DNA of 32,000 bases from Candidatus Harpocratesius repetitus (GTDB taxonomy: Archaea; Asgardarchaeota; Lokiarchaeia; Sigyniarchaeales; Promethearchaeaceae): assembly GCA_021498095.1 (NCBI GenBank), contig JAIZWK010000001.1, positions 1,230,001 to 1,262,000 on the forward strand. Direction: 5' to 3'. This document shows, one piece after another, positions 24,948-28,319 of the stretch. A program made the position numbers and the translations under genes. A model generated the notes under the pieces. It ran no database searches. It had not been told where the DNA came from and saw only the letters and a list, made by a program, of their open reading frames with translations. Within the stretch, counting starts at the first letter, position 1. Each line of letters begins with the position of its first letter.

Positions 24948-25083
24948 TTTTTTTTAACCAATATTGAAGCAAAAAAATCGATGATGAAATTAAGCGTAAA
25001 CTTATCAACATTCAAATAACGAAAGAATTAACAAAAAAGCAAAAAAAACGTAAAAGCCAAAAAATGCGCAATATATTATTCTA

Positions 25084-25161
25084 TGCAGATGATGATACTT
25101 TAAGAGGAAGACCGAAGTTGGAAACAACTAATGAAGAGATCTACTCAGGGTATCTGATGCA
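25084..25161 (+). ncRNA. Box C/D guide sRNA with two K-turns
   Basis: TGCA stem 25084-87; C box ATGATGA 25089-95; 16-nt guide; D' CCGA 25112-15; hairpin AGTTG-GAAA-CAACT 25116-29; C' ATGAAGA 25131-37; 16-nt guide; D CTGA 25154-57; TGCA stem 25158-61. Entirely intergenic. Confidence 0.88.
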
Positions 25162-28237: not shown

Positions 28238-28319
28238 GCAGGGGTAGTCAAGTCGAAACGACGCTAGGTTGAGGGCCTAGTCCAATAGTGGTTCGAGGGT
28301 TCAAATCCCCCCTCCTGCA
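28238..28319 (+). tRNA. trnL: tRNA-Leu(GAG), no intron, CCA not encoded
   Basis: Acceptor GCAGGGG/CTCCTGC plus discriminator A; anticodon arm CTAGG-TTGAGGG-CCTAG (GAG at 28271-73); long variable arm CCA-ATAG-TGG; T arm GAGGG-TTCAAAT-CCCCC; T-rich run downstream. Confidence 0.93.

Follow-up and report, generated by a model that had tools for sequence, protein, structure and literature searches.

Two minus-strand open reading frames in the window, the 32,000-nucleotide stretch of Candidatus Harpocratesius repetitus DNA analysed here, are separated by a gap of 234 nt, and the opposite strand of this gap carries sequences resembling the boxes of a C/D guide RNA. The locus raises the question of whether these boxes mark a real RNA gene, which nucleotides such an RNA would direct to methylation, and how far its build, which the initial annotation had called more eukaryote-like than archaeal, sets it apart from the guides that are already known.

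Layout and conservation of the RNA

The features of the RNA are collected in Table 1, together with three other C/D sRNA candidates found in the same genome. Boxes C, D', C' and D stand in the order in which they had been reported, each of the reported elements was recovered in place, and both spacers are 16 nt long. Given these elements at these coordinates, each box pair consists of a Watson-Crick stem and a 3-nt bulge with tandem G.A/A.G pairs possible, so that the claim of a full K-turn at both box pairs was borne out. The reported GNRA loop is present here as GAAA; it is restricted to the host's genus (g1), and only the stem beneath it is conserved. The minimum free energy fold of the single sequence pairs the two spacers with each other (-16.1 kcal/mol, z = -1.85); this pairing is not conserved and was dropped from the model. 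The flanking reading frames encode a GH35-like protein and a zinc-ribbon repeat protein. Further along the window, an 82-nt tRNA gene was observed at 28238-28319 on the plus strand (Rfam RF00005, 44.6 bits).

Table 1. Positions of the RNA and its parts in the window, and of the other C/D sRNA candidates in the host genome (G000, contig C1)
Feature	Position	Strand	Remarks
Whole RNA, about 78 nt	25084-25161	+	layout UGCA-G-AUGAUGA-16 nt-CCGA-AGUUG/GAAA/CAACU-A-AUGAAGA-16 nt-CUGA-UGCA
Putative promoter element, motif AAAAAATG (tentative)	25059-25066	+	18-25 nt upstream of the RNA
Terminal stem, 5' half UGCA	25084-25087	+	pairs with 25158-25161
Bulge G	25088	+	with A25089 and U25090 forms the 3-nt K-turn bulge
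Box C, AUGAUGA	25089-25095	+	invariant across orthologues
D' spacer, 16 nt	25096-25111	+	core GAGGAAG, G25104-G25110, is positions 8-2 upstream of D'; position 5 is G25107
Box D', CCGA	25112-25115	+	
Internal stem AGUUG, loop GAAA, stem CAACU	25116-25129	+	canonical stem of the C'/D' K-turn
A	25130	+	with A25131 and U25132 forms the bulge of the C'/D' K-turn
Box C', AUGAAGA	25131-25137	+	
D spacer, 16 nt	25138-25153	+	core CUCAGGGUA, C25144-A25152, is positions 10-2 upstream of D; position 5 is G25149
Box D, CUGA	25154-25157	+	invariant across orthologues
Terminal stem, 3' half UGCA	25158-25161	+	pairs with 25084-25087
C/D sRNA candidate, compact layout	G000:C1:622072-622125	+	GGC stem, AUGAUGA, 12-nt spacer, C' AUGACA, 13-nt D spacer UUGUCGCCCCACG, CUGA
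C/D sRNA candidate	G000:C1:3192612-3192667	+	11-nt D' spacer, K-loop, 16-nt D spacer (..UCGAGAAUAAA before CUGA)
C/D sRNA candidate	G000:C1:3754780-3754862	-	5-bp terminal stem, D' guide UAAGGCAUUUGC, long D'-C' hairpin

In order to place this layout against chance, the 4.36-Mb genome (31% G+C) was scanned strictly for the C/D'/C'/D arrangement, which gave 7 layouts at 5 sites and none in the reversed genome. Convincing boxes together with a terminal stem were present at two of these sites, one of which is the RNA of the window. A looser scan for C, D and a terminal stem returned 15 matches, against 2 in the control, and among the 3 of the 15 that lie outside long reading frames (terminal stem of at least 4 bp) the window RNA was again found.

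Homologues were sought by a combined pattern and covariance-model search of 150 genomes of the order, and homologues with compensatory stem changes, of the kind that the initial annotation had suggested looking for, were found in family f1, with both stems covarying. Strong matches were confined to that family, in which they occur in genus g1 (the host and G002), genus g5 (G006 and G010) and genus g6 (G007, G011 and G013); a weaker, non-syntenic match is present in genus g4 (G005). In the same-genus genome G002, 92% identity extends across exactly the RNA and the flanks have diverged. Throughout g1, g5 and g6, the RNA adjoins homologues of the same GH35-like or zinc-ribbon genes.

The terminal stem is kept at 3-6 bp in all six aligned orthologues with differing sequences (GGC/GCC, AAGCA/UGCUU and UUGCA/UGCGA), and three of its four pairs have changed on both sides. 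An internal stem of at least 3-5 bp is likewise present in six of six (AGCUG/CAGCU, CGA/UCG, GAA/UUC and GGUUU/AAACC), with four of five pairs changed on both sides; the internal stems of G013 and G005, read by eye, are GGUU/AACC and GGAUUU/AAAUCC. A model-based alignment was used for the covariation analysis in place of MAFFT alignments, which misaligned the internal stem. In it 98.4% of the cells are paired and 7 of 11 pairs have changed on both sides; none of 500 shuffles reached this covariation, and sliding the partners destroyed the signal. Because the alignment was fitted to the structure, these figures lean towards it, and the genomes compared are close relatives and hence non-independent samples; the stems can also be read directly in the sequences. 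Box D' varies from CCGA in g1 and g5 to CUUA in g6 and AUGA in G005, its GA being kept except in g6. Box C' reads AUGAUGA in G002 and g6 and AUGACGA in G006, and its GA dinucleotides are invariant among the six aligned orthologues. Motifs resembling (A/G)AAAAATG lie 17-30 nt upstream of orthologues as well (G002, G010, G005 and G007; loci L006, L007, L010 and L068), and the motif may be a promoter element, in surroundings that are AT-rich.

It could be argued that there is no RNA gene here, and that AT-rich intergenic DNA has brought the boxes together by chance or that they belong to a UTR. The search of Rfam is in keeping with such a reading, as no family was matched at gathering score; the best match, to ceN22, reached 21.5 bits against a threshold of 45, and the sub-threshold matches, at 15-21 bits, were weak ones to C/D snoRNAs that reflect a generic C/D resemblance. 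Chance would not, however, limit conservation to the 78 nt between diverged flanks, make the stems covary or keep the synteny in three genera, and the RNA is encoded on the strand opposite to both neighbouring genes, so that we regard this explanation as extremely unlikely. Conservation together with covariation settles that the layout exceeds chance. Judged by its boxes, both K-turns, conservation and covariation, the RNA belongs to the box C/D guide class, as had been proposed, and we conclude from these comparisons of sequence that the plus strand of the window at 25084-25161 is a real, unannotated box C/D guide RNA gene.

Predicted targets in the large-subunit rRNA

The host encodes the core proteins of a C/D ribonucleoprotein, namely fibrillarin (269 bits), a Nop-domain protein (215 bits) and L7Ae (92.5 bits), and the genes for fibrillarin and Nop5 are adjacent. 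A single Nop-domain gene was found in the genome, and not the paralogous Nop56 and Nop58 of the eukaryotic type. The genome was also seen to encode a true actin (435 bits, Pfam Actin) and two more proteins of the actin family; Pfam Actin had no match in any of four archaeal control genomes, which identifies the host as an Asgard archaeon. Its rRNA genes (G000:C1:2300729-2305614; 724577-726072; 802841-805945) are arranged as an LSU-then-SSU pair, an unlinked SSU gene and an unlinked LSU gene.

In order to identify targets, the guides of each orthologue were compared with the rRNAs of its own genome, and contiguous pairing across position 5 was scored by aligned position over three complete genomes. 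For the D guide the best shared site lies in helix 74, where the guides of the host, G010 and G011 pair over 9, 9 and 11 bp, and none of 200 permutations of the guide columns reached this shared score. In the host, positions 2-10 of the guide pair over 9 bp, one of them G:U, with LSU 2558-2566 on the 3' strand of the helix (-15.7 kcal/mol), which agrees with the length of about 9 bp spanning position 5 that is expected of archaeal guides. Position 5 falls on C2561 of the host LSU, the equivalent of E. coli 2441 (UUACCCUGGG). Taken in the host genome alone, the best D score is not exceptional (shuffle fraction 0.37). A G-to-A change gives the rRNA of genus g6 the sequence UUACCCUAGGGG, as seen in the two genomes with an assembled copy, and position 8 of the guide has changed from C to U to match; in the g6 guide, moreover, position 1 is A and position 9 is C, and each of the three changes improves pairing. 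This covariation of guide and target was seen in one genus. Since g6 is the outgroup of g1 and g5 by LSU identity, the helix 74 target is probably ancestral. No separate guide for helix 74 was found in the host genome.

For the D' guide, the core GAGGAAG pairs over 7 bp with host LSU 2615-2621 (CUUCCUC) in the peptidyl-transferase loop and places position 5 on C2618, equivalent to E. coli C2498. Only the 7-8 nt next to box D' are conserved across genera, and they read AAGGAAG in g5. C2618 is the best shared D' site: it was reached by 1 of 200 permutations with three genomes, and by 0 of 300 when one guide per genus was used (four genera) or when the guides of family f3, described below, were added. 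The pairing amounts to 9 bp in G005 and, aligned by hand, to 7+6 bp around one bulged A in g5. A permutation test on the total of paired cells with the f3 guides was not significant (0.22); A-rich guides pair loosely everywhere, and this test was therefore replaced by the contiguity score. Within the host genome alone, the 7-bp duplex is not exceptional against shuffled guides.

We considered whether the D' arm is vestigial in this genome, such that methylation is left to the D guide and the C'/D' K-turn is kept just for the assembly of the ribonucleoprotein or for chaperoning. The duplex of 7 bp falls below the 9-bp criterion of Dennis et al. (PMC4644070), and in comparison with G005 and g5, whose pairing extends further, the spacer has diverged in its 5' half. 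The same authors, however, relax the 9-bp rule for double guides acting on nearby sites (PMC4644070), the 7-nt core is the sole part of the spacer that is conserved, over four genera and the sister family and in register with box D', and no other guide for the C2498-equivalent C2618 was found in the host genome. A vestigial D' arm is, on this balance, improbable. A different target of the D guide, either the main or an additional one in g1 and g5, could be LSU 400-412 in domain I (GUAUCC[C/U]GAGUAG), with methylation of C404 near E. coli G367. The guide of G010 pairs there over 13 contiguous bp, positions 1-13 (shuffle fraction 0.007), and that of G006 over 12 bp; in the host the duplex is worth -14.7 kcal/mol, against -15.7 for helix 74. 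Guide positions 11-13, moreover, are conserved between g1 and g5 though unpaired with helix 74, and since they fit only LSU 400-412 a second target is possible. Nevertheless, the host and G002 have an A.C mismatch at position 7, two nucleotides from the target, the g6 guides do not fit the site, there is no guide-target covariation at it, and 13 bp are not required, given that solved archaeal ribonucleoproteins accept about 10 bp (PMC7229835). No separate guide for LSU 400 was found in genus g6. We hold this site to be an unlikely target.

The initial annotation had placed the D guide on helix 24 of the SSU, at the equivalent of E. coli C796, and the D' guide on LSU helices 69-70, within H69-H71, at about E. 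coli 1921. A scan of the guides against the host's own rRNAs and tRNAs, which it had also suggested, did return a 12-bp match of the latter kind but gave only six contiguous pairs in h24. The host h24 reads AUACCCCGGUAG; it has AUACCC in common with the complement of the D guide and pairs ungapped with positions 1-6 only, after which a mismatch and a bulge follow, and at -13.3 kcal/mol against -15.7 for helix 74 it was rejected. The 12-bp match is real: LSU 2047-2058 pairs with the 5' three-quarters of the D' spacer (shuffle fraction 0.02, -14.1 kcal/mol). The duplex nonetheless starts at position 5, where it has a G:U, leaves positions 1-4 unpaired and draws on the 5' half of the spacer, which lacks conservation; in G002 it is disrupted by a U-to-C change, and in g5 and g6 it is absent, so that this site too was rejected. 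Neither site is among the best shared ones, and it is hardly conceivable that these are the targets. Among the 21 tRNAs predicted by aragorn, the best pairings were of 8-9 bp with G:U and none was compelling, and across the whole genome no near-perfect complement of either guide was found outside the rRNAs except the antisense strand of the gene itself. The D' guide of G002 can pair over 13 bp at position 720 of its LSU; the site lies in a variable hairpin present only in that genome, and the match was therefore treated as chance.

The most likely function of the RNA is to guide the sugar methylation of two cytidines of the large-subunit rRNA that lie next to its catalytic centre. We consider it probable that it is a double-guide box C/D sRNA of about 78 nt which pairs with the LSU for methylation of C2561 and C2618; the case for these targets draws on conservation, covariation and the match to a Methanopyrus guide, sR16, that is discussed below. 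By the established mechanism, boxes C/D and C'/D' would each fold into a K-turn to which L7Ae binds, and a Nop5 dimer and two fibrillarins would assemble on the RNA. Positions 2-10 of the D guide on LSU 2558-2566 would place C2561, and positions 2-8 of the D' guide on LSU 2615-2621 would place C2618, at the +5 position, and both cytidines would receive a 2'-O-methyl group. Neither pairing requires the 5' 6-8 nt of its 16-nt spacer, which appear to be tolerated as extra length. C2561 and C2618 lie 57 nt apart in domain V and bracket helix 89 on the 23S map, so that the RNA may in addition keep this region in place while it folds, a role that has been proposed for double guides. Double guides usually address sites within 100 nt of one another and may act as folding chaperones (PMC4644070).

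Spacer length and the internal stem

In archaea, the spacers of C/D RNAs normally measure about 12 nt, and C'/D' is formed as a K-loop (PMC7229835, PMC7994747). As had been noted from the sequence, the RNA of the window departs from this compact norm in having 16-nt spacers and a stem at C'/D', and the remark that longer spacers and an internal stem are more eukaryote-like also holds; both are typical of eukaryotic snoRNAs and exceptional in archaea. The spacers here measure 16 and 16 nt. Across family f1 the D' spacers range from 13 to 17 nt (23 nt in G005, by eye) and the D spacers from 13 to 25 nt (13 nt in G005, by eye); the additional, unconserved nucleotides are found at the end away from the box. 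A stem of 3-5 bp or more, and not a K-loop, closes C'/D' in all six aligned orthologues; a K-loop at C'/D' is a typical and not an obligatory archaeal feature. An archaeal ribonucleoprotein with 21-23-nt spacers was fully active (PMC7229835), so the departure in length need not change the mechanism; and as a length limit is not needed for activity, the limit of about 12 nt is characteristic of archaeal guides and does not define them mechanistically.

Two orthologues show further variation. In G011 (L030:1497-1581, minus strand) the D spacer is 25 nt long and resembles a partial internal duplication of the guide (ACUAGGUUAAU followed by CCUAGGGUAA). The orthologue-like sRNA of G005 in genus g4 (L068:1501-1587, minus strand) combines its 23-nt D' spacer with an internal stem of 6 bp; its D guide, UUUUAUAGUUACA, is a different one, which pairs over 10 bp with helix 69 and places position 5 on E. 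coli A1913; this match is weak (shuffle fraction 23/300).

The three other C/D sRNA candidates of the host genome, at 622 kb, 3.19 Mb and 3.75 Mb, bear on whether such laxity is general. That at 3.19 Mb is conserved in G001, G002 and G010 (g1 and g5), and the 5' half of that at 3.75 Mb is conserved in three g6 genomes. Either a 16-nt spacer or a long D'-C' hairpin is present in two of the three. On four loci, which do not amount to a census, the lineage may in general not keep strictly to compact guides. A stronger proposal is that this Asgard family has, as a trait of the lineage, abandoned both the ruler that keeps spacers at 12 nt and the K-loop, given that orthologues of one guide retain their targets with spacers of anywhere from 13 to 25 nt and close C'/D' with a real helix; in our view it is doubtful. 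If it were true, these RNAs would be a present-day intermediate between the compact sRNAs of archaea and the snoRNAs of eukaryotes, with a more flexible ribonucleoprotein that perhaps uses the additional spacer nucleotides for accessory pairing. A trend cannot be established from one RNA family and three further loci. The build is nevertheless the unusual part of this RNA and, in relatives of the eukaryotic ancestor, of moderate evolutionary interest.

Comparison with known guide RNAs

A full-text search of the literature found no paper describing Asgard C/D sRNAs. The present analysis supplies an Asgard genome with an RNA gene that its annotation lacked and predicts two ribose methylations in the peptidyl-transferase region, at the equivalents of E. 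coli 2441 and C2498. One of these two nucleotides is a site that E. coli methylates with a protein-only enzyme: RlmM is a stand-alone 2'-O-methyltransferase for C2498 of 23S rRNA (PMC3488215, PMC11542601), and thus acts on the nucleotide predicted here as the D' target. The table of PMC11542601 gives no archaeal or eukaryotic counterpart of Cm2498.

The closest functional match is sR16 of M. kandleri, which was detected by RNA-seq and is assigned 23S C2715 as its D target and C2772 as its D' target (Dennis et al. 2015, PMC4644070, Additional file 1). From its sequence, the guides of sR16 are GAUCGAGGUAGG before CCGA (D') and CCCCUGGGGUAC before UUGA (D). When these were placed anew on the M. 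kandleri 23S rRNA of Additional file 3, position 5 fell on the second C of UACCCC and on the first C of ACCUCGAUG. The column numbers of that file, as stored, are shifted by 6 from true E. coli numbering, and the equivalence of targets was therefore set by sequence context. By this measure sR16 and the RNA of the window address the same two target nucleotides (E. coli 2441 and C2498) with the same arms and in the same context, 57 nt apart. Both have CCGA as box D', and their D' cores, GAGGUAG in sR16 and GAGGAAG here, differ at one position, which matches a difference between the rRNAs at E. coli 2497. They differ in build: sR16 has 12-nt spacers, 10-bp duplexes, an 8-nt K-loop between D' and C' without an internal stem, and UUGA as box D, whereas the RNA of the window has 16-nt spacers, duplexes of 9 and 7 bp, and a 5-bp stem closing C'/D'. 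Since the targets are the same as those of sR16, the function would be an ordinary one, and the RNA is, by function, the Asgard counterpart of a catalogued archaeal double guide. The assignment of this target pair to the Methanopyrus guide also suggests that the job may be old and widespread in archaea.

Single arms of the same kind are found in other archaea. For Ignicoccus hospitalis sR414, C2772 is listed as the target of the D' guide (GAUCGAGGUAAG, followed by CCGA), and for Sulfolobus acidocaldarius sR128, C2715 as that of the D guide (PMC4644070); the other arms differ (G2720 in sR414 and G2697 in sR128), and both RNAs have the compact archaeal architecture. Nearer to the host, the sister family f3 of the same order has a widespread, compact C/D sRNA of 65-75 nt (loci L057-L077, for example L058 and L057), whose guide core (A/G)AGGAAG(U/G/A), in register with a D-type box, is directed to the same LSU site, E. 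coli C2498, with 11 bp in some members; the rRNA site of this guide is identical in G030 and G138. In contrast to the RNA of the window, the f3 guide stands before the terminal box D and not before D', with spacers of roughly 12-14 nt and no internal stem (by eye).

Eukaryotic box C/D snoRNAs resemble the family described here in having variable spacers longer than 12 nt, a D'-C' stem, and pairing that is box-proximal only (PMC7229835). The RNA of the window is unlike them in its length, 78 nt and not 60-300 nt, in that both of its box pairs are well formed, and in that only one Nop-domain gene is encoded by its host; neither of its targets could be matched to a eukaryotic counterpart. Rather than representing a novel type of RNA, it stretches a guide that has been catalogued in other archaea, and within this familiar class it is a new variant at the level of a family, with a target pair that is ordinary and already catalogued.
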